64,000 nucleotides of DNA, taken from assembly GCA_017620205.1 (NCBI GenBank), contig JAFZQX010000003.1, positions 3,713 through 67,712 on the forward strand, read 5' to 3'. The notes beneath the pieces were generated by a model. The model saw only the letters and a list, made by a program, of their open reading frames with translations, did not search any database and was not told the DNA's origin. This DNA comes from Clostridia bacterium (GTDB taxonomy: Bacteria; Bacillota; Clostridia; UMGS1883; UMGS1540). Of this stretch, positions 41,177 to 56,194 are shown in pieces; within the stretch, counting starts at the first letter, position 1, and each line of letters starts with the position of its first letter. Position numbers and translations under genes: made by a program.

Positions 41177-42988
41177 TTATAAATTTAACGTGCGCAGGGA
41201 ATTGAGTATTGCAATAACGCATACGCCGACATCTGCAAATACCGCCAAAGCCAGCGGCATACCGAACGCGCCGCAGAGTATCATGATAAGAAACTTTATA
41301 AAGAGCGATACGAATATATTCTCTTTCGCTATAAGTACGGCTTTGCGCGCTGTTTTTATAGCTGTTGGAAGCGATGACGGACTGTCGTTCATAAGCACAA
41401 CATCTGCCGCTTCAATAGCGGCTTCGCTGCCAAGTGCGCCCATGGCGGCGCCTATATCGGCGCGCGCTATTGAAGGCGCATCGTTTATGCCGTCGCCAAC
41501 GAATATAAGCGGCGCGCCGCCTGTCATTTTTTCTATTTCCGCCGTTTTTTCGTGCGGCAAAAGCTCCGCCTTAAAGCTGTCAAGACCAATTTCGCCGCAT
41601 ACCTCTTTTGCCGTAGCCGCGGTGTCGCCCGTAAGCATTGCGCACTGCTTTATGCCTAGATCTTTAAGCTCTTTTATTGTGTTTTGAGATTCGGGGCGAA
41701 CGGTATCGCAAAGCATTAAATACCCGGCGTATTTACCGTCAACCGAAACGTGCAGTATGCAGCCGCCCTGAATTTCTTCATACTTTGCGCCTTCCATTGC
41801 CATCATTTTGCCGTTGCCGACGGCAACGCGCATGTCGTTTATGTTTGCCACAACGCCGTGGCCCGCAATTTCCTTTGTGTCTTTTATATCATAGCCGCTT
41901 GGCTCTTTGCCGTAAGCTTCGCGCAGATAAACGGCGATGGGGTGGGAGGAGTAGTATTCCGCGCAGACGCAGAGCGCGAAAAGCTCTCTTTGCGTCATGC
42001 CTTCGGCGTGAACGCGCCGGAGTTCAAATTTCCCGCTTGTAAGCGTTCCGGTTTTGTCAAAAACAGCTTTGTCCGCCCTTGAAAGTAAATCCAAAGTATG
42101 ACTGTTTTTTATAAGTATACCGTGCTTTGAAGCACTGCCTATCCCTCCGAAAAACGCGCAGGGAACACTTATTAAAAGAGCGCACGGGCACGATACTACA
42201 AGAAACGATAACGCCCTGTAAATACTCTCTTTAATGCTCATTCCGAAAACGGGCAGAATAAGCGCAAGCAAAACCGCTATTATAACGACAGCCGGAGTAT
42301 ATTTCTTTGAAAAACGCGTTATAAAACGCTCCGTGCTTGATTTTTTGTCCGCGCTTTCCTCGATAAGCTGAAGGATTTTGGAAACGGTTGAGGTTTCATA
42401 AGTGCTTTCCGTTTTAATTTCAACCGTGCCCGAAAGGTTTATAAATCCGCTTATTGCCTTATCACCGGTGCCTGCGTCGCGCGGGATAGACTCGCCGGTT
42501 AAAGAGGCTGTGTCAAAAGACGTACTGCCGGAAACTATAACGCCGTCTAAGGGAACCTTCTGACCTGCGGAAACAACGATAATATCTCCGAGCTTTACTT
42601 CGGATGCGTGTACCTTTTCTATACCGTCGCCGCGCTTTACAAACGCTTCGTCCGCACGCATTTCGGCGAGAGAGGATATGGACGCGCGCGATTTGTCGCT
42701 TGCTATATCGCAGAGAAGCTCTCCCAGCTGATAGAAAAGCATAATAGCCGCGCCCTCGGGAAATGCGCCTATACAAAATGCGCCGATGGAGGCTATTGTC
42801 ATCAAAAAGCACTCGTCAAATACTTCGCCGTGAATTATATTTTCAACGGCTTCTTTCAAAACAGGGAAACCGCAGATAAGAAAAGAAGCGATATAAAGCG
42901 CCAAAGAAAGATAAAAGCTATCTCTTAATAAAAAGCCTAGGCACAAAAGTATGAGAGACAGTATAATCAGTGAAATTCTCTTTTTCAT
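41177..42988 (-). CDS. cadA: heavy-metal (Cd/Zn/Co-type) P1B-type ATPase without an N-terminal metal-binding domain
   Basis: CPC in TM6, DKTGT, GDGIND. Confidence 0.85.
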   Translation of the reverse strand: MKKRISLIILSLILLCLGFLLRDSFYLSLALYIASFLICGFPVLKEAVENIIHGEVFDECFLMTIASIGAFCIGAFPEGAAIMLFYQLGELLCDIASDKSRASISSLAEMRADEAFVKRGDGIEKVHASEVKLGDIIVVSAGQKVPLDGVIVSGSTSFDTASLTGESIPRDAGTGDKAISGFINLSGTVEIKTESTYETSTVSKILQLIEESADKKSSTERFITRFSKKYTPAVVIIAVLLALILPVFGMSIKESIYRALSFLVVSCPCALLISVPCAFFGGIGSASKHGILIKNSHTLDLLSRADKAVFDKTGTLTSGKFELRRVHAEGMTQRELFALCVCAEYYSSHPIAVYLREAYGKEPSGYDIKDTKEIAGHGVVANINDMRVAVGNGKMMAMEGAKYEEIQGGCILHVSVDGKYAGYLMLCDTVRPESQNTIKELKDLGIKQCAMLTGDTAATAKEVCGEIGLDSFKAELLPHEKTAEIEKMTGGAPLIFVGDGINDAPSIARADIGAAMGALGSEAAIEAADVVLMNDSPSSLPTAIKTARKAVLIAKENIFVSLFIKFLIMILCGAFGMPLALAVFADVGVCVIAILNSLRTLNL

Positions 42989-43353
42989 TCGTTTTCGCCC
43001 CTTTCGTTTATATGGTCAAGTCCGAGTTCGAATATCGCCTTAATATGCGCGTCGTCAAGCGAATAGAAAACGTTTTTGGACTCCCTTCTGTATTTTACAA
43101 GTTTAGCGTCTTTTAAAATCTTAAGCTGATGCGAAATAGCAGATTTTGTCATAGACAAAAGCGCTGCCAGATCGCAAACGCATAGGGGGGCGGTATCAAG
43201 TGCAGAAACTATGCGTATTCTCGTTGTGTCGCCCAAAACCTTGTATAAAGCCGCTATCTCCAAAAGCGATTTTTCGTCCGGCATGTTTTTCTTCGCAACG
43301 GAAACCGCGTCGGAATGAATAACGTCACAGTCACATGTATAAGCGTTTTTCAT
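42985..43353 (-). CDS. cadC: ArsR/SmtB family metalloregulator (CadC-like)
   Basis: N-terminal Cys pairs with an ArsR HTH. Overlaps cadA by 4 nt. Confidence 0.8.
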   Translation of the reverse strand: MKNAYTCDCDVIHSDAVSVAKKNMPDEKSLLEIAALYKVLGDTTRIRIVSALDTAPLCVCDLAALLSMTKSAISHQLKILKDAKLVKYRRESKNVFYSLDDAHIKAIFELGLDHINERGENE

Positions 43354-43501
43354 ATATATCAATCCTTTCGCACAGTTGAATGTTTGTTCAACTATATTAT
43401 AATTGAATAACCATTCAATTGTCAAGCCTTTTTTGAAATTTCTTGATTTTTTTTAAAAACTAAGATAAAATCTATATATAAATCTATAAAAGGTGAGTTA
43501 A

Positions 43502-44744: not shown

Positions 44745-44773
44745 TTGACAAATTAAAAATAGTGTGTTAAACT
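44745..44773 (+). promoter_or_regulatory. sigma-A promoter (TTGACA-17-TAAACT) of the DUF2325 operon
   Basis: Consensus -35 with a fair -10. The iron-box palindrome begins 10 nt downstream. Confidence 0.55.
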
Positions 44774-44783
44774 TTATAGCAGA

Positions 44784-44799
44784 GTTAGCAAAGGCTAAC
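44784..44799. promoter_or_regulatory. operator palindrome GTTAGC-AAAG-GCTAAC (putative DtxR-family iron box)
   Basis: Perfect 6-4-6 palindrome. Same motif at 45134, 55112, 55615 and 55715. Confidence 0.6.
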
Positions 44800-44833
44800 T
44801 ATTAAACGGATATAAAATCAAGGAGAATAGTTT

Positions 44834-45121
44834 ATGAGCATAGTTATTGTAGGGGGACATGACCGCATGCATTGCCGCTATAAGGAAATATGCAAAAACT
44901 TTGGTTGTAAATGTAAGGTCTTTACACAATGTCCCGCCAATTTTCAAGGGAAGATAGGAAATCCCGATGTGATTATAGTTTTCACAAAAACAGTAGCGCA
45001 TAAGATGCTGAATGTTGTTTCAAGCAAAGCGTCCCAATCGGGCATAACGGTAAAATACTGCAATTCTTCGAGCGCCTTTGCGCTGAAAGAATGTCTGACT
45101 TCCCATCTTCAAATCAGTTAA
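44834..45121 (+). CDS. DUF2325 family protein
   Basis: About 95 aa with an MSIVIVGG N-terminus, recalled as DUF2325. Confidence 0.5.
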   Translation: MSIVIVGGHDRMHCRYKEICKNFGCKCKVFTQCPANFQGKIGNPDVIIVFTKTVAHKMLNVVSSKASQSGITVKYCNSSSAFALKECLTSHLQIS

Positions 45122-45133
45122 TTTTTTTTGGCA

Positions 45134-45157
45134 TTTAGTTAGCCTGTGCTAACTAAA
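45134..45157. promoter_or_regulatory. extended operator palindrome TTTAGTTAGC-CTGT-GCTAACTAAA
   Basis: Perfect 10-4-10 palindrome between the DUF2325 and DUF3793 genes. Confidence 0.6.
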
Positions 45158-45173
45158 TTAAGGAGGCTTTTGG

Positions 45174-45725
45174 TTGGAAAAAATAATAGCATATCACTGT
45201 GCGCCTGCGCTTGCCGGAATAAAACCGTCAAATCTTGTTTCAATTTCAAAAGAAAATACTCAGGATATAGCTTCTGAAATTGAAAGGCTAAACAAGCTGC
45301 TGAATTGTAAAGACATTTATATTGAAAAAATACATGAATGTACGTCCAGGGTCCTTGCGATAGTATACAGAAAAAAAGTGCTTTTAAGACATCTGAAAAA
45401 AGCCGAGTCGATTAAGTTTTTACGGAAATACGGTTACAGAGAGGCGGAAAAAACGGAAGATTTCATGGAAATTCTTAAATACAGGCTATCAAACTCACCG
45501 GAATTTCCGCATGAAATAGGAGTTTTTCTCGGATATCCAATAAACGATATTTACGGCTTTATTCATCATAAAAATGAAGGGTGTCTTTTGTGCGGAGAGT
45601 GGCGGGTTTATCAAAATGCAGATGAAGCAAAAGAGCTTTTCAGAAGATTTAAATTCTGCCGTAATGCACTTTTAAAAAGAATAGAAAGTGGCGTAACGCT
45701 TGCGGAGGTTTTTTGTACAATTTGA
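45174..45725 (+). CDS. DUF3793 family protein
   Basis: TTG start after AGGAGG. Family assignment from recalled similarity. Confidence 0.5.
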   Translation: MEKIIAYHCAPALAGIKPSNLVSISKENTQDIASEIERLNKLLNCKDIYIEKIHECTSRVLAIVYRKKVLLRHLKKAESIKFLRKYGYREAEKTEDFMEILKYRLSNSPEFPHEIGVFLGYPINDIYGFIHHKNEGCLLCGEWRVYQNADEAKELFRRFKFCRNALLKRIESGVTLAEVFCTI

Positions 45726-45777
45726 AACAAGTTTACTTTAGTAAGTAAATTGTTAATATAAAAAGGAGGTTTTACAA

Positions 45778-46209
45778 ATGAGTAAAACAGCAATTATTTA
45801 TTGGAGTGGCACAGGAAACACTGAGATAATGGCTAAAGCCGTTTTAGTTGGCGCAGCAGAAACAAACCCCGAAACGGAGCTTTTTCATGTTTCTGAAATT
45901 ACGCCCGATACAGCTGCTTCATACGATACACTCATACTTGGGTGCCCCGCTATGGGATCAGAGGTTTTGGAGGAGGAGGAATTTGAGCCGTTCTTTACGG
46001 AGCTTGAAGCAAGCCTTGCGGGTAAAAAAGTCGGTCTTTTCGGCTCATACGGTTGGGGTGACGGCGAATGGATGCGCAACTGGGAAAAACGCGTTGAAGA
46101 CGCAGGAGGAAATCTGTTGGGCGGTCAAGGCCTGATTGTAAATGACGCTCCAGACGAAGCGGCACTTGAAGAGTGCAGAGAATTAGGAAAATCGGCTTCG
46201 GAAAGTTAA
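45778..46209 (+). CDS. fldA: short-chain flavodoxin
   Basis: The T/SGTGNTE FMN phosphate-binding loop. 143 aa. Confidence 0.9.
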   Translation: MSKTAIIYWSGTGNTEIMAKAVLVGAAETNPETELFHVSEITPDTAASYDTLILGCPAMGSEVLEEEEFEPFFTELEASLAGKKVGLFGSYGWGDGEWMRNWEKRVEDAGGNLLGGQGLIVNDAPDEAALEECRELGKSASES

Positions 46210-46267
46210 AAACAGATGTGATTGGGGCTGTCTTAATATAGTGCAGAACGGACAAACTGAACCCGAA

Positions 46268-46316
46268 GGCGTACGAGGGTACGTCGAGAGGTGAAGTTTG
46301 TTCGTAGCAAAAAGCA
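46268..46316. repeat. conserved intergenic segment (copy 1) GGCGTACGAGGGTACG...GCAAAAAGCA
   Basis: About 80% identical to 61310..61350. Flanked by the inverted repeats TTGGGGCTGTCT (46222) and AGACAGCCCCAA (46446). Confidence 0.6.
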
Positions 46317-46461
46317 TTAATTTATTAAAAAATTCGTCAAAACGAATTTTTACATCAAGTTTTTAAAAGAACTACAATCGATAAAAACGTCAAACTATCA
46401 GGATTTTTACCCGTTTTTTCTGCTTTTTGCGGTCTGTGCATAGTGAGACAGCCCCAACTGC

Positions 46462-47241
46462 TTATCCAAGTGCAACATCAAGTATCATCATTAATGTAAA
46501 GCCGAGTGAAAACAATATAACCCCGATGTTTGAATGTTTTCCCGAAGACATTTCGGGGATAAGTTCTTCAACAACAACATATATCATAGCACCTGCCGCA
46601 AAGCTCAGAAAATATGGCATTGCCGGTATGATAAACCCTGCCAAAAGCATTGTAAGCACTGCCGCAACTGGCTCTACCGCGCCTGATAAAACACCGTCTG
46701 CAAACGACCTTGCTTTATTTCTGCCCTCCGCGTGAAGCGGCATGGATATAATTGCACCTTCAGGAAAATTCTGAATAGCAATACCAAGCGAAAGTGCCAA
46801 AGCGACCCCCGCCGTTATATTGGCAGAGCCTGAAAGATACCCCGCATATAAAACACCGACAGCCATTCCCTCCGGTATATTATGAAGTGTAACGGCTAAA
46901 AGAAGCATTGTCGTTTTGGAAAAACTGCTTTTCGGACCCTCCGCCTTGTTTGCATCCATGTGTAAATGCGGAATGCTTTTATCCAGTATGAGCAGAAATA
47001 ATATACCAAGCCAAAATCCAATCGTTGCAGGAACAAACGAGAATTTCCCAAGATTGTCCGACTGTTCGAGTGACGGAATGATAAGACTCCATACAGAGGC
47101 CGCTGTCATAACGCCCGCTGCAAATCCTGTCAATGCCCGTCGGGTAGTTTTATTCATTTCTTTTTTCATGAAGAAAACACAAAATGCACCAAGAGATGTG
47201 CCTATAAAAGGTATTAAAACGCCGCAAAATATTTCAAGCAT
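46462..47241 (-). CDS. zupT: ZIP family metal (zinc) transporter ZupT/GufA-like
   Basis: Eight-TM ZIP protein with HNxPEG-type motifs (HNIPEGMAVG, QNFPEGAII). Confidence 0.85.
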   Translation of the reverse strand: MLEIFCGVLIPFIGTSLGAFCVFFMKKEMNKTTRRALTGFAAGVMTAASVWSLIIPSLEQSDNLGKFSFVPATIGFWLGILFLLILDKSIPHLHMDANKAEGPKSSFSKTTMLLLAVTLHNIPEGMAVGVLYAGYLSGSANITAGVALALSLGIAIQNFPEGAIISMPLHAEGRNKARSFADGVLSGAVEPVAAVLTMLLAGFIIPAMPYFLSFAAGAMIYVVVEELIPEMSSGKHSNIGVILFSLGFTLMMILDVALG

Positions 47242-47256
47242 GATAAAATCCACTCC

Positions 47257-47922
47257 TTACTTTGAGCCGCTGTCCGATAATGCTTCAGGGTTTTTATCGC
47301 CTATAATCCAATAATTACACTCGCCGTCACCGCAGGCAAGGGTTTTGTGCCGTATCAAAGTAGCGTGCATTGTTTTACAGGTGAGCTGATCTATGGCACA
47401 AAGATTTGGCAAAAAGTCTATATATCCGTATTTTCTTGCAAAATCATTTATGGGACAGGTATCAAAAACAAAAGCTATGCCCTTGTCGTGTTTTTCGGGA
47501 TTTAATCGTATTTCCCAAGTGCTGCCCCAATCTTTGCCGCGGTGCCTATCGGCTTTTTTCGCATAATTTGCAAAGTATTTATATATAAGTTTCATAAGCC
47601 ATTTCTTTTTTTCTAATTTATTCATATCAAAATGAGACAGCAGTTTTAGCTTTTTACCCATTGCAATATCTATAAGATCATTTAAATCTTCTTTTGTGAG
47701 TGTACGGTCAACAGCTTCATAAAATGCAAAAAACGCATAGACCAATAAGACATTATCTGCCATCATATTTTTTCTGCCGCCGAAATCGCCTTCTTCACGC
47801 AGCCATTTGTTATAGAGAGATAACGCCTTTTCAAAGCGTTTTTCGGCTTCTTCGGGGGTGTAATGCTCCGAAAGCCATTTTTTCACATAAGGCTCAAACT
47901 TTTTTAAGTATTTATCATACAT
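47257..47922 (-). CDS. L-2-amino-thiazoline-4-carboxylic acid hydrolase-like (ATC hydrolase family) protein
   Basis: C-terminal C...C...CGDGxC pattern recalled for the PF14196 family. Confidence 0.4.
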   Translation of the reverse strand: MYDKYLKKFEPYVKKWLSEHYTPEEAEKRFEKALSLYNKWLREEGDFGGRKNMMADNVLLVYAFFAFYEAVDRTLTKEDLNDLIDIAMGKKLKLLSHFDMNKLEKKKWLMKLIYKYFANYAKKADRHRGKDWGSTWEIRLNPEKHDKGIAFVFDTCPINDFARKYGYIDFLPNLCAIDQLTCKTMHATLIRHKTLACGDGECNYWIIGDKNPEALSDSGSK

Positions 47923-47987
47923 CAAACTGTCCTCCGTTTTTTTGCTTTCTGAAAGAATTACGGCATACATCTTGAAAGCTCCGATAA

Positions 47988-52622: not shown

Positions 52623-55097
52623 TTACGCCTCCTCAAGTTTTGTAGCCTCCTTATACTTTTTGATAAACAGCATGTATATCATAACCGCCAAGAGAGCTAA
52701 AGCTGCAATAAAGCCTATTATATTTATATTGCCGCTTACGGCTTTTCCGAACTGGTTTATCATAAGAGCTATTGCATACGCAAAGCCTGTCTGATACAAA
52801 ATCGCAAACCAAGTCCATTTGCGGTTGTTCATCTCGCGCTTTATAGCGCCTATTGCCGCAAAGCAAGGTGCACAGAGTAAGTTAAATACCAAAAATGCAA
52901 AGCCCGAAACGGACGTGAATGCTTCTGCAATGCCGCGGTATGCGTTTCCTGCACCGCTGTATAAAATACCCATAGTGCCGACGATATTTTCTTTAGCAAC
53001 AAGTCCCGTTATGGAAGCTACTGCCGCCTGCCATTTGCCAAAGCCGAGAGGTGCAAAGAGAGGCGCTATCAGACTTCCTATTCTTGCTAAAATTGATAAG
53101 TCAAGCTCGTCTTCCGAGAGCATTCTGAAGCCTTCATCCGTAAAGCCGAAGAAGCTTGTAAACCAAACAAATATAGTAGATAAGAGAATGATAGTGCCGG
53201 CCTTTTTAATAAACGACCAGCCGCGCTCCCACATGGAACGCAAAACGTTTGAAAGTGTAGGAAGGTGGTAGGAGGGAAGCTCCATAACGAAAGGCGCGGG
53301 CTGTCCCGAAAACATCTTTGTCTTTTTAAGCATTATGCCCGATATTACTATTGCCGCCATACCTATAAAGTATGCCGATGTAGCGATCCACGCAGAGCCG
53401 CCGAAAAGCGCGCCGGCGATCATAGCGATAAACGGAATTTTTGCGCCGCAGGGGATAAATGTTGTTGTCATTATTGTCATACGGCGGTCACGTTCATTTT
53501 CAATTGTACGGCTTGCCATAATACCGGGCACCCCGCAGCCTGTGCCTATAAGCATAGGAATAAACGATTTACCCGAAAGACCGAATTTTCTGAATATTCT
53601 GTCAAGCACAAATGCGATACGTGCAATATATCCGCAAGCTTCAAGAAACGCCAGGAGGAAGAATAGCACAAGCATTTGCGGCACAAAACCGAGCACTGCG
53701 CCGACACCCGCTATAATACCGTCTAAAATCAAGCCTTTTAGCCAATCTGCCGCGCCTGCTTTATCGAGCCAACCTTCTATAACCGAAGGAATACCTTTTA
53801 CCCAAATTCCGTAATTGGCAGGATCCGGCTCGTCAAAACCTTTTTCTTCAAAGTATTCTACCGCTTCTTTGTATGATACGGGAACTACGTCTTCACCGGC
53901 GTCTTCCGGAACTTCGTCAAAATAAACCGTCATAGCTTCTGTTGCCAACGTTTCTTCGTCTTCAACCTCAACAGTTGACGTTTCTTCTCCACTGATTTCT
54001 TTCATTTCAGCGAGTGCGGCTTCTTCGTCAAAATCCTCCGCTTCCGTGTCAAGCTCATAAAAAGCGTTTACGGCGTTTAAGCTATCCGTGTATTCTTCTG
54101 ATACTTCTTCATATTCTGCAGTTCCCTTGCCGAATAAATGCCAGCCGTCGCCGAAAAGTCCGTCATTTGCCCAATCTGTTGAAGCTGCACCTATGCCTAC
54201 CATTGAAATGTAGTAAACAAGAAACATAATCACGGCGAAAATAGGGAGGCCGAGCCATCTGTTTGTAACTACTTTATCTATTTTGTCGGAGCTTGATAAT
54301 TTACCCGTGTCCTTTTTCTTGTAGCATGTTTTTATAATCTCGGCAATACCTATATATCGTTCGTTTGTGATAATGCTCTCTGCGTCATCGTCAAGTTCGC
54401 GCTCTGCCGCTTTTATATCTTCCTCAATATGCGAAAGAGTTTCGGACGGGACGCCGAGCTTTTCAATGATTTTTTCATCGCGTTCAAATATTTTTATTGC
54501 GTACCATCTTTGCGCGTCATCTGACATATCATGCAGAGCCGCTTCTTCGATATGTGCTATTGCATGCTCAACCGCACCCGAAAAAGTATGCGGATGAACT
54601 TTTTTGCCGCCTTTGGCAGCTTTTATTGCGGCTTCTGCCGCTTCCATAATGCCGTCACCTTTTAAAGCCGAAATTTCAACAATAGGACATCCGAGCCTTA
54701 AAGATAACATATCCGTATTTAATTTGTCGCCGTTTTTTCTTACAACGTCCATCATGTTGACGGCTACAACAACGGGTATCCCAAGCTCTATAAGCTGAGT
54801 TGTGAGATACAGGTTTCGCTCAATATTTGTGCCGTCAACAATGTTTAAAATAGCGTCGGGCTTTTCGTCAATAAGATAATTTCGTGCGACAACCTCTTCC
54901 AATGTGTAGGGCGATAGGGAATAGATGCCCGGAAGATCTGTAACGGTTACGCCTTCGTGGCGTTTAAGCTTACCTTCTTTTTTTTCAACCGTTACGCCGG
55001 GCCAGTTTCCTACAAACTGATTAGAACCCGTAAGCGCGTTAAAAAGAGTTGTTTTACCGCTGTTTGGGTTTCCCGCAAGTGCAATTTTAATCTCCAT
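52623..55097 (-). CDS. feoB: ferrous iron transporter FeoB, with an acidic insertion of about 100 aa
   Basis: N-terminal G domain (GNPNSGKTT) with a polytopic permease. 824 aa including a D/E-rich insert. Confidence 0.9.
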   Translation of the reverse strand: MEIKIALAGNPNSGKTTLFNALTGSNQFVGNWPGVTVEKKEGKLKRHEGVTVTDLPGIYSLSPYTLEEVVARNYLIDEKPDAILNIVDGTNIERNLYLTTQLIELGIPVVVAVNMMDVVRKNGDKLNTDMLSLRLGCPIVEISALKGDGIMEAAEAAIKAAKGGKKVHPHTFSGAVEHAIAHIEEAALHDMSDDAQRWYAIKIFERDEKIIEKLGVPSETLSHIEEDIKAAERELDDDAESIITNERYIGIAEIIKTCYKKKDTGKLSSSDKIDKVVTNRWLGLPIFAVIMFLVYYISMVGIGAASTDWANDGLFGDGWHLFGKGTAEYEEVSEEYTDSLNAVNAFYELDTEAEDFDEEAALAEMKEISGEETSTVEVEDEETLATEAMTVYFDEVPEDAGEDVVPVSYKEAVEYFEEKGFDEPDPANYGIWVKGIPSVIEGWLDKAGAADWLKGLILDGIIAGVGAVLGFVPQMLVLFFLLAFLEACGYIARIAFVLDRIFRKFGLSGKSFIPMLIGTGCGVPGIMASRTIENERDRRMTIMTTTFIPCGAKIPFIAMIAGALFGGSAWIATSAYFIGMAAIVISGIMLKKTKMFSGQPAPFVMELPSYHLPTLSNVLRSMWERGWSFIKKAGTIILLSTIFVWFTSFFGFTDEGFRMLSEDELDLSILARIGSLIAPLFAPLGFGKWQAAVASITGLVAKENIVGTMGILYSGAGNAYRGIAEAFTSVSGFAFLVFNLLCAPCFAAIGAIKREMNNRKWTWFAILYQTGFAYAIALMINQFGKAVSGNINIIGFIAALALLAVMIYMLFIKKYKEATKLEEA

Positions 55098-55111: not shown

Positions 55112-55129
55112 GGTTAGCAAACGCTAACC
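55112..55129. promoter_or_regulatory. operator palindrome GGTTAGC-AAAC-GCTAACC between feoA and feoB
   Basis: Perfect 7-4-7 palindrome. Confidence 0.55.
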
Positions 55130-55143
55130 ACTATTCAAAAAAA

Positions 55144-55365
55144 TTAGTCAACCAAAATCATCTGAGCGTCAGCTTTTCTTATAGAAAGCTCATATCCTCT
55201 GACAGTAACTTCAATCGGGTCGCCGAGAGGAGCTACTTTTCTAACTGAAATAGTTGTACCTTTTGTTACGCCCATGTCCATAATTCTGCGCTTCACCGCG
55301 CCTTCGCCGCTGAGCTTTGAAACAACCGCTGTTTCGCCTACTTTAACGTCTTTTAATGTTTTCAT
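55144..55365 (-). CDS. feoA: FeoA family protein
   Basis: SH3-like FeoA domain. 73 aa. Confidence 0.85.
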   Translation of the reverse strand: MKTLKDVKVGETAVVSKLSGEGAVKRRIMDMGVTKGTTISVRKVAPLGDPIEVTVRGYELSIRKADAQMILVD

Positions 55366-55376
55366 GATTATTCCTC

Positions 55377-55589
55377 CTAAATCAAAATTTTGCTTGCCAT
55401 TTTGGAATCAAGCGCAACTCTTGATTCTTTTATTTTTACAATAACATTTCCGCCTATTGTGTTTATTACGGTTGCGCTTCCGCCGACAGAAAAGCCAAGG
55501 TTTTCAAGGTGTTTTTTAACATCGGGCGTGCCGCCTATTTTTTTGATTATACATTCCTCGCCCGCTAAGGCAAAGCTGATGGGAATCAT
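55377..55589 (-). CDS. feoA: FeoA family protein (second copy)
   Basis: FeoA domain. Start moved to the ATG with an AGGAAG RBS. Confidence 0.8.
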   Translation of the reverse strand: MIPISFALAGEECIIKKIGGTPDVKKHLENLGFSVGGSATVINTIGGNVIVKIKESRVALDSKMASKILI

Positions 55590-55614: not shown

Positions 55615-55631
55615 GTTAGCCTATGCTAACC
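55615..55631. promoter_or_regulatory. operator palindrome GTTAGC-CTAT-GCTAACC at +8..+24 of the feo promoter
   Basis: Lies between the -10 and the RBS of feoA. Confidence 0.6.
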
Positions 55632-55640
55632 TCTTAATAC

Positions 55641-55670
55641 ATTATAGTTACCCAAAGCTAACTTGTCAAT
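55641..55670 (-). promoter_or_regulatory. sigma-A promoter of the feoAAB operon (TTGACA-17-TATAAT), spacer carrying an AGTTAGC half-site
   Basis: Perfect consensus on the minus strand. Confidence 0.7.
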
Positions 55671-55714: not shown

Positions 55715-55730
55715 GTTAGTCATAACTAAC
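55715..55730. promoter_or_regulatory. operator-like palindrome GTTAGT-CATA-ACTAAC upstream of the dtxR-family gene
   Basis: Variant of the same 6-4-6 motif. Confidence 0.5.
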
Positions 55731-55816
55731 CCGTTTGTTGTATATTTTTTGTTTTCTCGTTTATATGCTTGATTTTAGGAGAAAAAGATGGTAAAATATT
55801 AAAAAAGGGAGGTGCG

Positions 55817-56194
55817 TCTATGGCAAACGGTGAATCAAAAGAGATGTATCTTGAAACAATACTTATTCTATCAAAAGAAAATAAAACTGTCCGTTCTGTG
55901 GACATCAGTGAATATATGGGCTTTTCTAAGCCCTCCGTCAGCCGTGCAATGGGGCTTTTAAAAGACGCGGGGTATATAGAAGAAGATTACAGGGAAGGGA
56001 TTAACCTTACAAAAAAGGGAAAGCAGATAGCAGAAGATGTGTATGAAAGACACCTGACGCTTACAAAGATGTTTGAGTCTTTAGGTGTTGACCATGATAC
56101 GGCTGTTGATGACGCCTGTAAAATTGAGCATTTTATAAGCGATAAAACGTTTAAGGCTATAAAAAAGCATTTTGAAGAATATAATAAAGAATAA
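55817..56194 (+). CDS. DtxR/MntR family metal-dependent transcriptional repressor
   Basis: N-terminal HTH (PSVSRAMGLLKDAGYI) and a dimerisation/metal-binding domain. 125 aa with no SH3 domain. Confidence 0.8.
   Translation, partial: SMANGESKEMYLETILILSKENKTVRSVDISEYMGFSKPSVSRAMGLLKDAGYIEEDYREGINLTKKGKQIAEDVYERHLTLTKMFESLGVDHDTAVDDACKIEHFISDKTFKAIKKHFEEYNKE

Follow-up and report, generated by a model that had tools for sequence, protein, structure and literature searches.

The closest described relatives of the system analyzed here are the DtxR/IdeR regulons of Corynebacterium and Mycobacterium and the flavodoxin genes controlled by the repressor Fur. In this work we examine a 64,000-nucleotide stretch of a Clostridia bacterium contig (JAFZQX010000003.1; hereafter, the window) in which a GTTAGC-N4-GCTAAC palindrome accompanies both an operon encoding DUF2325, DUF3793 and a short-chain flavodoxin and a feoA-feoA-feoB operon adjoining a DtxR/MntR-family regulator gene. 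With a probability of about 0.72, we propose that RGTTAGY-N4-RCTAACY is the DNA operator of this 124-aa repressor (55820-56194), and that the feo operon and the DUF/flavodoxin operon are repressed by iron through it. The whole system resembles in its working both DtxR/IdeR regulons and the induction of flavodoxin under Fur control, and it gives two DUF families a strong lead to their function.

The window regulator shares with DtxR and IdeR the PF01325 and PF02742 domains and a Met/Cys/Glu/His set of primary metal ligands, and in both systems palindromic operators overlap iron-uptake promoters, with autoregulation and multi-site binding plausible in either. It differs from them in lacking an SH3-like domain and conserved ancillary-site residues, in its low overall similarity (E ~1e-8) and in the hosts of the system, which are Clostridia and other anaerobes. 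The DtxR/IdeR box, moreover, is a 19-bp element, TTAGGTTAGCCTAACCTAA, unlike the 6-4-6 palindrome of the window. Replacement of ferredoxin by flavodoxin is the textbook way in which anaerobes spare iron, and ykuNOP of B. subtilis is one instance of Fur-controlled flavodoxin. In C. difficile the flavodoxin gene fldX is iron-repressed via Fur, and the same has been predicted for fld in Desulfovibrio (PMC6311696, PMC545781). The logic resembles that proposed for the window, with de-repression at low iron sparing the iron of ferredoxin and with Feo co-regulated, but the repressor family differs and C. difficile fldX is monocistronic, without a DUF3793 or DUF2325 partner; its neighbors encode a proline iminopeptidase and a TetR regulator.

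Other members of the repressor family offer partial parallels. Enterobacterial MntR is a two-domain protein of similar size whose box, AACATAGCnnnnGCTATGTT, has the 6-4-6 spacing and the TAGC-N4-GCTA core of the window palindrome (PMC1698941), but it carries Asp/Glu where the window regulator has Met/Cys and controls mntH, mntS and mntP, not feo or flavodoxin genes. The Haloferax proteins TroR and SirR are likewise small DtxR-family iron-uptake repressors acting on short-spacer palindromes, with tandem TroR sites ~30 bp apart, whereas their half-sites (TTTAGGC-N3-CCTAAA and, for SirR, TTTwGA-N4-TCwAAA), promoter type and regulon (siderophores, dpsA) are different (PMC10783522). For DUF2325, a counterpart is found in Campylobacter jejuni Cj1384c, a stress- and metal-regulated protein of the same Pfam family, ~100 aa long with 7 Cys and encoded beside the iron/haem-related gene katA; unlike the window gene, it is controlled by PerR/RacRS, is induced by reactive oxygen species (ROS) and has no link to feo or flavodoxin. 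To date, recent work on the flavodoxins of Eubacterium limosum and C. difficile has treated the fld genes as stand-alone. Our searches, limited to the open-access literature, returned no paper on this operator, on its regulon or on DUF3793 paired with flavodoxin; combining the motif with DtxR retrieved only papers on Corynebacterium DtxR, and the two families yielded one unrelated mention of DUF3793 and passing mentions of DUF2325.

Distribution and nature of the palindrome

Four perfect matches to GTTAGCNNNNGCTAAC are present in the 64 kb of the window (sites A to D, Table 1), and GTTAGC-N4-GCTAAC did not occur once in 100 dinucleotide-preserving shuffles of the same sequence. A relaxed pattern adds a copy with one mismatch (site E) and a symmetric T/A variant, GTTAGTcataACTAAC (site F), beyond which no convincing copy was found in the 64 kb. 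All six sites are located either at the DUF2325-DUF3793-flavodoxin operon or at the feo and DtxR-family locus. Site B starts 12 nt past the DUF2325 stop codon and ends 1 nt ahead of the DUF3793 ribosome-binding site (AAGGAGG), and site F overlaps the -35 element of a promoter candidate (55717-55746, 9/12), with a second, TG-bearing candidate further downstream (55769-55797). An earlier note made from the sequence alone had placed a perfect 6-4-6 palindrome just past a sigma-A promoter, at +5..+20, in good agreement with the ~+4 to +20 position of site A behind a 10/12 promoter, and had located the identical motif at the feo operon and the DtxR-family gene, where sites C and D are perfect and sites E and F near-copies. 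Its extended palindrome before DUF3793 is there as well, with arms of 11-4-11 instead of the 10-4-10 described; the motif recurs at a nearby locus as claimed, but six sites are found rather than five, and the distance between the loci is 10.3-10.9 kb rather than 9 kb.

The comparison set consisted of 80 DUF3793 loci on contigs from one genome per species, with neighboring genes called using iterated profiles. At least one site (GTTAGY-N4-RCTAAC, at most one mismatch) lies within 700 bp upstream of DUF3793 in 55 of the 80 loci, a 46-fold enrichment, and when up to two mismatches are allowed 98 sites fall in the 34 kb upstream of the DUF cluster against 38 in the other 820 kb. In 37 of the 55 loci with the motif, the proximal site, the counterpart of site B, starts 31-60 nt ahead of the start codon of DUF3793. 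The layout itself is conserved: a TTGACA-17-TGnTAnnAT promoter is followed 7-10 nt later by a first site and often, 33-36 bp further, by a second (L001, L002, L011, L015, L017, L023, L067, L074), and site A of the window shows the same geometry. Sites outside the DUF3793 upstream regions mostly stand before feoA, before DtxR-family genes or at the feoA/feoB junction, as site C does in the window (also L005, L025, L028, L030, L042, L061). Motif-bearing loci include Clostridia, Phascolarctobacterium, Treponema and Synergistes, and in Brachyspira an A/T variant of the motif overlaps the -10 element. The half-sites vary between C/G and T/A at positions 6 and 11 in correlation with lineage, the T/A form (GTTAGT-N4-ACTAAC) being the commonest in other genomes, and DUF3793 retains the operator even in loci that have no flavodoxin gene. 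These data support the interpretation of the palindrome as a conserved operator-like element, specific to the DUF/flavodoxin cluster and to feo/dtxR in other species. On account of this site-specific placement, we rejected an origin by chance or as a repeat element.

The palindrome is also seen ahead of genes for small membrane-anchored HMA-domain proteins with a GMxCxxC motif (L005 46-469, L008 1193-1603, L087 4441-4794) and for a CydDC-like ABC exporter (L010 748-4134, L014 2149-4018), and these genes probably belong to the regulon too. In L051 (2520-2660), beside the DtxR-family gene of that locus, GTTAGC-N4-GCTAAC is replaced by differing 6-4-6 palindromes, GTTAAGagaaCTTAAC and GTTAAAcaaaTTTAAC (GTTAAG-N4-CTTAAC), a substitution that suggests co-evolution of operator and regulator.

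Hairpin formation is expected from any transcribed palindrome, and the intra-operon copies (sites B and C) could act mainly as RNA hairpins in the control of translation, in processing or stability, or in attenuation: both lie only a few nucleotides ahead of a ribosome-binding site, the arms of site B are extended to 11 bp, and the copy found after DUF2325 in L084 has no downstream gene to regulate. We regard this explanation as very unlikely, given that the 86 sites analyzed show no excess of flank complementarity (38 observed versus 36.2 expected at the first flanking position, from permuted controls), that 11 of them have a C opposite an A at positions 6 and 11, and that the sequence of the arms, beyond their pairing, is kept across phyla. 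Identical sites occupy non-transcribed promoter spacers (site E), the hairpins are not followed by a T-run, and an Rfam scan of the whole window gave no hit at the gathering threshold for the palindromes. Because flank covariation is absent, we interpret the palindrome as a DNA operator and not as an RNA hairpin; it behaves as a putative site for a symmetric dimer, with half-site centers 10 bp apart.

The candidate repressor and its signal

The regulator encoded next to the feo operon combines a PF01325 winged-helix DNA-binding domain (45.4 bits, cut-off 26) with a PF02742 dimerization and metal-binding domain (52.2 bits, cut-off 27) and ends at residue 124, so that the C-terminal third domain is missing. 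Its top matches among solved structures are MntR proteins, followed by DtxR and IdeR. In alignments to PDB entries, its Met9, Cys99, Glu102 and His103 correspond to Asp8, Glu99, Glu102 and His103 of MntR; in a MAFFT alignment with a manually entered DtxR sequence, they also match the primary site of DtxR (Met10, Cys102, Glu105, His106), with Val and Thr at the positions of the ancillary residues His98 and Glu83. Guedon and Helmann reportedly found in 2003 that Met/Cys at these two positions separate the Fe-sensing DtxR/IdeR proteins from MntR. None of the six candidate ligand residues varies among the 120 nearest homologues of the regulator (60-91% identical). Because the Met/Cys ligand site is invariant among them, the comparison favors a DtxR/IdeR Fe-type site that would sense Fe2+ rather than Mn2+. 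Regulator genes adjoin the DUF cluster or feo in L004, L008, L028, L035, L036, L051 and L084-L089.

Independent evidence on the signal comes from lineages in which the palindrome is replaced and from transcriptomic data. In the palindrome-free locus L066, TGATAATCATTATCA matches the Fur box perfectly and stands at -64 relative to DUF3793, the likewise palindrome-free L039 has a 2-mismatch Fur box at -38, and Veillonella loci show Fur-like TGAnAAT-N-ATTnTCA boxes on their promoters. AT-rich intergenic DNA inflates matches to the Fur box, so that apart from L066 these instances only suggest that Fur boxes stand in for the palindrome in some lineages without it. In the window, a scan with the Fur box TGATAATnATTATCA produced a sole 3-mismatch copy inside the DUF2325 coding region and none in the operon promoter. 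In an RNA-seq dataset from Faecalibacterium duncaniae, the flavodoxin gene CG447_01530 is up by log2 4.3-4.5 together with CG447_01520 and CG447_01525, two adjacent hypothetical genes that may correspond to DUF2325 and DUF3793; feoA1, feoA2, feoB, feoC and a ZIP transporter are co-induced with this group, and ABC exporter genes similar to the motif-preceded ones rise with feo (PMC10781979 supplement). The iron-starvation role that the earlier note had read into the operon is supported in silico by operator conservation, Fe-type ligands, gene linkage and the Fur boxes of other lineages.

From the position and conservation of the sites, the linkage of the genes and the ligand residues of the regulator, we infer a mechanism in which the 124-aa regulator binds the palindromes in response to Fe2+ and represses. 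When Fe2+ is sufficient, a metal-loaded dimer would occupy the operators: at site A, just downstream of the operon -10, it would block initiation, at sites D and E it would cover the start region and the spacer of the feo promoter and block initiation there, and at site F it would sit upstream of the regulator's own gene. The internal sites B (before DUF3793) and C (before feoB) would probably serve as roadblocks or keep weak internal promoters off. Under iron scarcity, the repressor would leave the DNA and all units would be de-repressed, with Feo importing Fe2+ and flavodoxin standing in for the iron-sulfur ferredoxin, aided by DUF3793 acting as a partner of flavodoxin and by DUF2325 acting as a Cys-rich accessory in iron or redox handling.

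Several observations weigh against this iron-repressor interpretation, and some of them would fit a regulator of the same architecture whose signal is Mn2+ or something else, oxidative stress for instance, so that the operon would be a unit for manganese or redox stress. Among curated models, MntR equivalogs come nearest, the top NCBIfam match being the E. coli-type MntR PRK11050 (89.8 bits, under its cut-off of 153), and the operator core and spacing are those of the enterobacterial MntR box. Distant orthologues carry Asn or Asp at the Met position (L028, L036, L051), so metal specificity may differ between lineages, and one source labels a regulator homologue 'Mn-dependent'. Some FeoB paralogues transport Mn2+, and C. 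difficile fldX is induced by O2 as well as by low iron. The sole studied DUF2325 member, Cj1384c, belongs to an oxidative-stress response under PerR/RacRS and is strongly induced by ROS (PMC9426514). We nevertheless consider a manganese or redox signal unlikely. The match to E. coli-type MntR is below cut-off and the regulator has Met/Cys in place of the Asp/Glu selectivity residues, an Fe-type pair (Met9/Cys99) that does not vary among the 120 nearest homologues; its targets, feoAB and flavodoxin, are the classic iron-limitation pair; other lineages have Fur boxes in the same place; and no mntH or mntABC gene with the motif was found in the window or the comparison loci.

A second group of adverse observations concerns the protein that binds. 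A Cys-rich (type-2) DtxR-like paralogue is encoded directly beside the cluster in L004 (5239-5622), L008 (5212-5586), L035 (1495-1920) and L036 (7201-7665); it has DAxCxLC in place of DACxIEH, is without the Met/Glu N-terminal ligands and may be a different sensor, for instance thiol- or Fe-S-based. A motif copy lies 18 nt ahead of the paralogue gene in L036, and the half-site variation at positions 6 and 11 follows lineage. This paralogue could be the protein that binds the palindromes beside the cluster or, alternatively, a product of the operon could act as autoregulator. Either case seems to us quite unlikely: the type-2 paralogue was not detected in the 64-kb window, where the motif lies both upstream of the regulator gene itself and on the feo promoter that diverges from it, as is usual for a local repressor under its own control, and a Foldseek search against the PDB gave no helix-turn-helix or DNA-binding fold match for the models of DUF3793 and DUF2325. 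It must also be said that in L084-L086 a CGGTTAGtctttTCTAACCG palindrome follows a T-run, 16 nt past the DUF2325 stop codon and with no DUF3793 gene after it, which a simple operator model leaves unexplained, and that the roles predicted for DUF3793 and DUF2325 are drawn from gene linkage only.

DUF3793, DUF2325 and their genomic partners

The third gene of the operon encodes a flavodoxin, as the earlier note had it, with TIGR01753 and PF00258 scores above their cut-offs, and the co-occurrence that it proposed to check in other genomes is borne out for DUF3793. Flavodoxin adjoins DUF3793 in 64 of the 74 evaluable loci, which span Clostridia, Negativicutes, spirochaetes and Synergistes; its gene almost always follows that of DUF3793 directly, with overlapping reading frames in one Veillonella group. 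DUF2325 is present in 18 of the 80 comparison loci, in addition to the window.

The DUF3793 family comprises ~3,700 clusters at 50% identity. In a search of 1.84 billion representatives, the best 150 matches are all single-domain proteins of ~185 aa, with no domain fusion among them. Its AlphaFold2 (AF2) model has a predicted local distance difference test (pLDDT) score of 90.6, and neither a Foldseek fold search nor a profile search against PDB sequences identified a significant PDB relative. Ten residues are invariant over 80 diverse members (K17, Y88, F111, H113, E114, G116, Y121, D125, W143 and Y146); cysteines are not universal among these 80. A sub-threshold CCHC zinc finger, seen in 9 of 29 members, is the only Pfam cross-match to recur. 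Since its Cys/His residues are not conserved throughout the family, we discarded a Cys4 or Cys/His metal site common to all members, and the conserved residues look like a ligand pocket or active site rather than a Cys4 metal site.

The several cysteines noticed earlier in the window DUF2325 amount to 7 in 95 aa. Its close homologues show a mean column identity of 75%, with invariant GGHD, C14, C20, GCKCK and FTxTVAHKM; across loci C20 and C25 are conserved, and C14 and C27 are found in most members, making metal binding by DUF2325 plausible. The AF2 model (pLDDT 91) is a four-stranded alpha/beta fold of the flavodoxin/CheY-like type with the conserved loops at the C-terminal strand ends; Foldseek returned only generic CheY/flavodoxin-like matches, with E above 0.008, and a profile search of PDB sequences was empty. 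DUF2325 also occurs apart from the flavodoxin pair. In L084-L086 (5001-5322), from another species, it terminates a feoA-feoA-feoB-FeoB_associated operon that has a DtxR-family gene diverging from it, and there it is 65% identical to the window protein and has neither DUF3793 nor flavodoxin nearby. In other genomes it lies with the pair in a larger feo-HMA-DUF2325-DUF3793-fld array.

These results support DUF3793 and flavodoxin as a conserved gene pair and DUF2325 as independently linked to feo. Given its gene neighborhood, DUF3793 is most likely a dedicated flavodoxin partner, such as a maturation or docking factor or a flavodoxin-using enzyme, and DUF2325 most likely serves the low-iron response as an accessory protein for iron or redox handling. 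A more specific proposal, which we advance tentatively and at less than even odds, is that DUF3793 may be an unrecognized, widely conserved obligate partner of short-chain flavodoxins in anaerobes, as a factor for flavin mononucleotide (FMN) loading or maturation or as an enzyme or adaptor linking flavodoxin with its redox partners, and DUF2325 a Cys-rich Fe(II) or redox accessory of Feo and the low-iron response; both would then form a new iron-sparing module whose switch is a DtxR-type repressor in certain phyla and Fur in others.

Feature map, surroundings and significance

The features of both loci are compiled in Table 1. The three genes of the DUF2325-DUF3793-flavodoxin operon are separated by 52-nt gaps, and a consensus terminator scan predicted no + strand terminator between them; the scan also missed the hairpin downstream of flavodoxin because of its AT-rich composition. 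At the second locus, two FeoA proteins and a multi-domain FeoB within one operon make up a Feo system.

Table 1. Coordinates of genes, promoters and candidate operator sites at the two loci of the window (position 1 is the first nucleotide of the window)
Feature	Position	Strand	Basis
Operon promoter, TTGACA-17-TAAACT, extended -10 (TG)	44745..44773	+	10/12 in sigma-70-type consensus scan
Candidate operator site A, GTTAGCaaagGCTAAC	44784..44799		perfect match; ~+4 to +20, starts 10 nt past -10
DUF2325 gene, 95 aa, 7 Cys	44834..45121	+	PF10087, 103.2 bits (cut-off 33.6)
Candidate operator site B, 11-4-11 perfect palindrome, ATTTAGTTAGC-ctgt-GCTAACTAAAT	45133..45158 (core 45138-45153)		read from sequence; core a perfect match
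DUF3793 gene, 183 aa, TTG start	45174..45725	+	PF12672, 181.8 bits (cut-off 25.1)
Short-chain flavodoxin gene, 143 aa	45778..46209	+	TIGR01753, 146.5 bits (cut-off 123); PF00258, 62.9 bits (cut-off 25)
Hairpin and T-run, likely operon terminator (approximate bounds)	46326..46354	+	read from sequence; helix in computed fold
feoB	52623..55097	-	FeoB_N, FeoB_Cyto, Gate and FeoB_C domains
Candidate operator site C, feoA/feoB junction, abuts feoB ribosome-binding site	55113..55128		perfect match
feoA, second copy	55144..55365	-	PF04023, 79 bits
feoA, first copy	55377..55589	-	PF04023; start is the ATG after AGGAAG, chosen by reading the sequence
Candidate operator site D, ~+4 to +19 of feo promoter	55615..55630		perfect match and promoter scan
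feo promoter, TTGACA-17-TATAAT	55641..55669	-	12/12 consensus
Candidate operator site E, 1 mismatch, fills feo promoter spacer	55647..55662		relaxed motif and promoter scan
Candidate operator site F, GTTAGT-N4-ACTAAC variant, upstream of regulator gene	55715..55730		relaxed motif scan
Two-domain DtxR/MntR-family metalloregulator gene, 124 aa	55820..56194	+	PF01325 and PF02742; start is the ATG after GGGAGG

Between DUF3793 and flavodoxin lies a promoter-like TTGAAA-18-TAAATT element (45722-45751, 9/12) in operator-free surroundings; were it active, flavodoxin would receive a basal, iron-independent expression. The terminator hairpin is contained in a larger structured intergenic region of ~240 nt (46218-46460) that separates the convergent flavodoxin and ZIP genes and has the two arms of a long imperfect inverted repeat, TTGGGGCTGTCTTAATATAGTGCAGAAC ... 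GGTCTGTGCATAGTGAGACAGCCCCAA, at its ends. This region has a folding energy of -91.3 kcal/mol for the + strand (z = -8.2) and of -73.4 kcal/mol for the - strand (z = -5.9) and matches no Rfam family at the gathering threshold; its repeat arm has no second copy in the window and was otherwise seen only in contigs of the same species. It could be an insertion resembling a miniature inverted-repeat transposable element (MITE), a structured RNA or an elaborate bidirectional terminator. The surroundings of the operon are metal-related, with an ArsR-family regulator and a P-type ATPase upstream (minus strand, 41177-43425) and a ZIP-family transporter and an ATC_hydrolase-family gene downstream (minus strand, 46462-47970), and the palindrome is absent from these neighboring genes in the window.

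Competition for iron among gut bacteria is strong. The present analysis defines a candidate operator and regulon (feoAB, fld, the HMA-domain protein and the ABC exporter) for a subfamily of DtxR-family regulators that is common in uncultured gut Clostridia, where Fur is usually assumed to regulate iron. It connects two uncharacterized families with the response to low iron in several phyla of bacteria, and the DUF3793-flavodoxin pair, preceded in most lineages by an iron-type operator and in some of the rest by Fur boxes, gives two large families a testable physiological context over four phyla.

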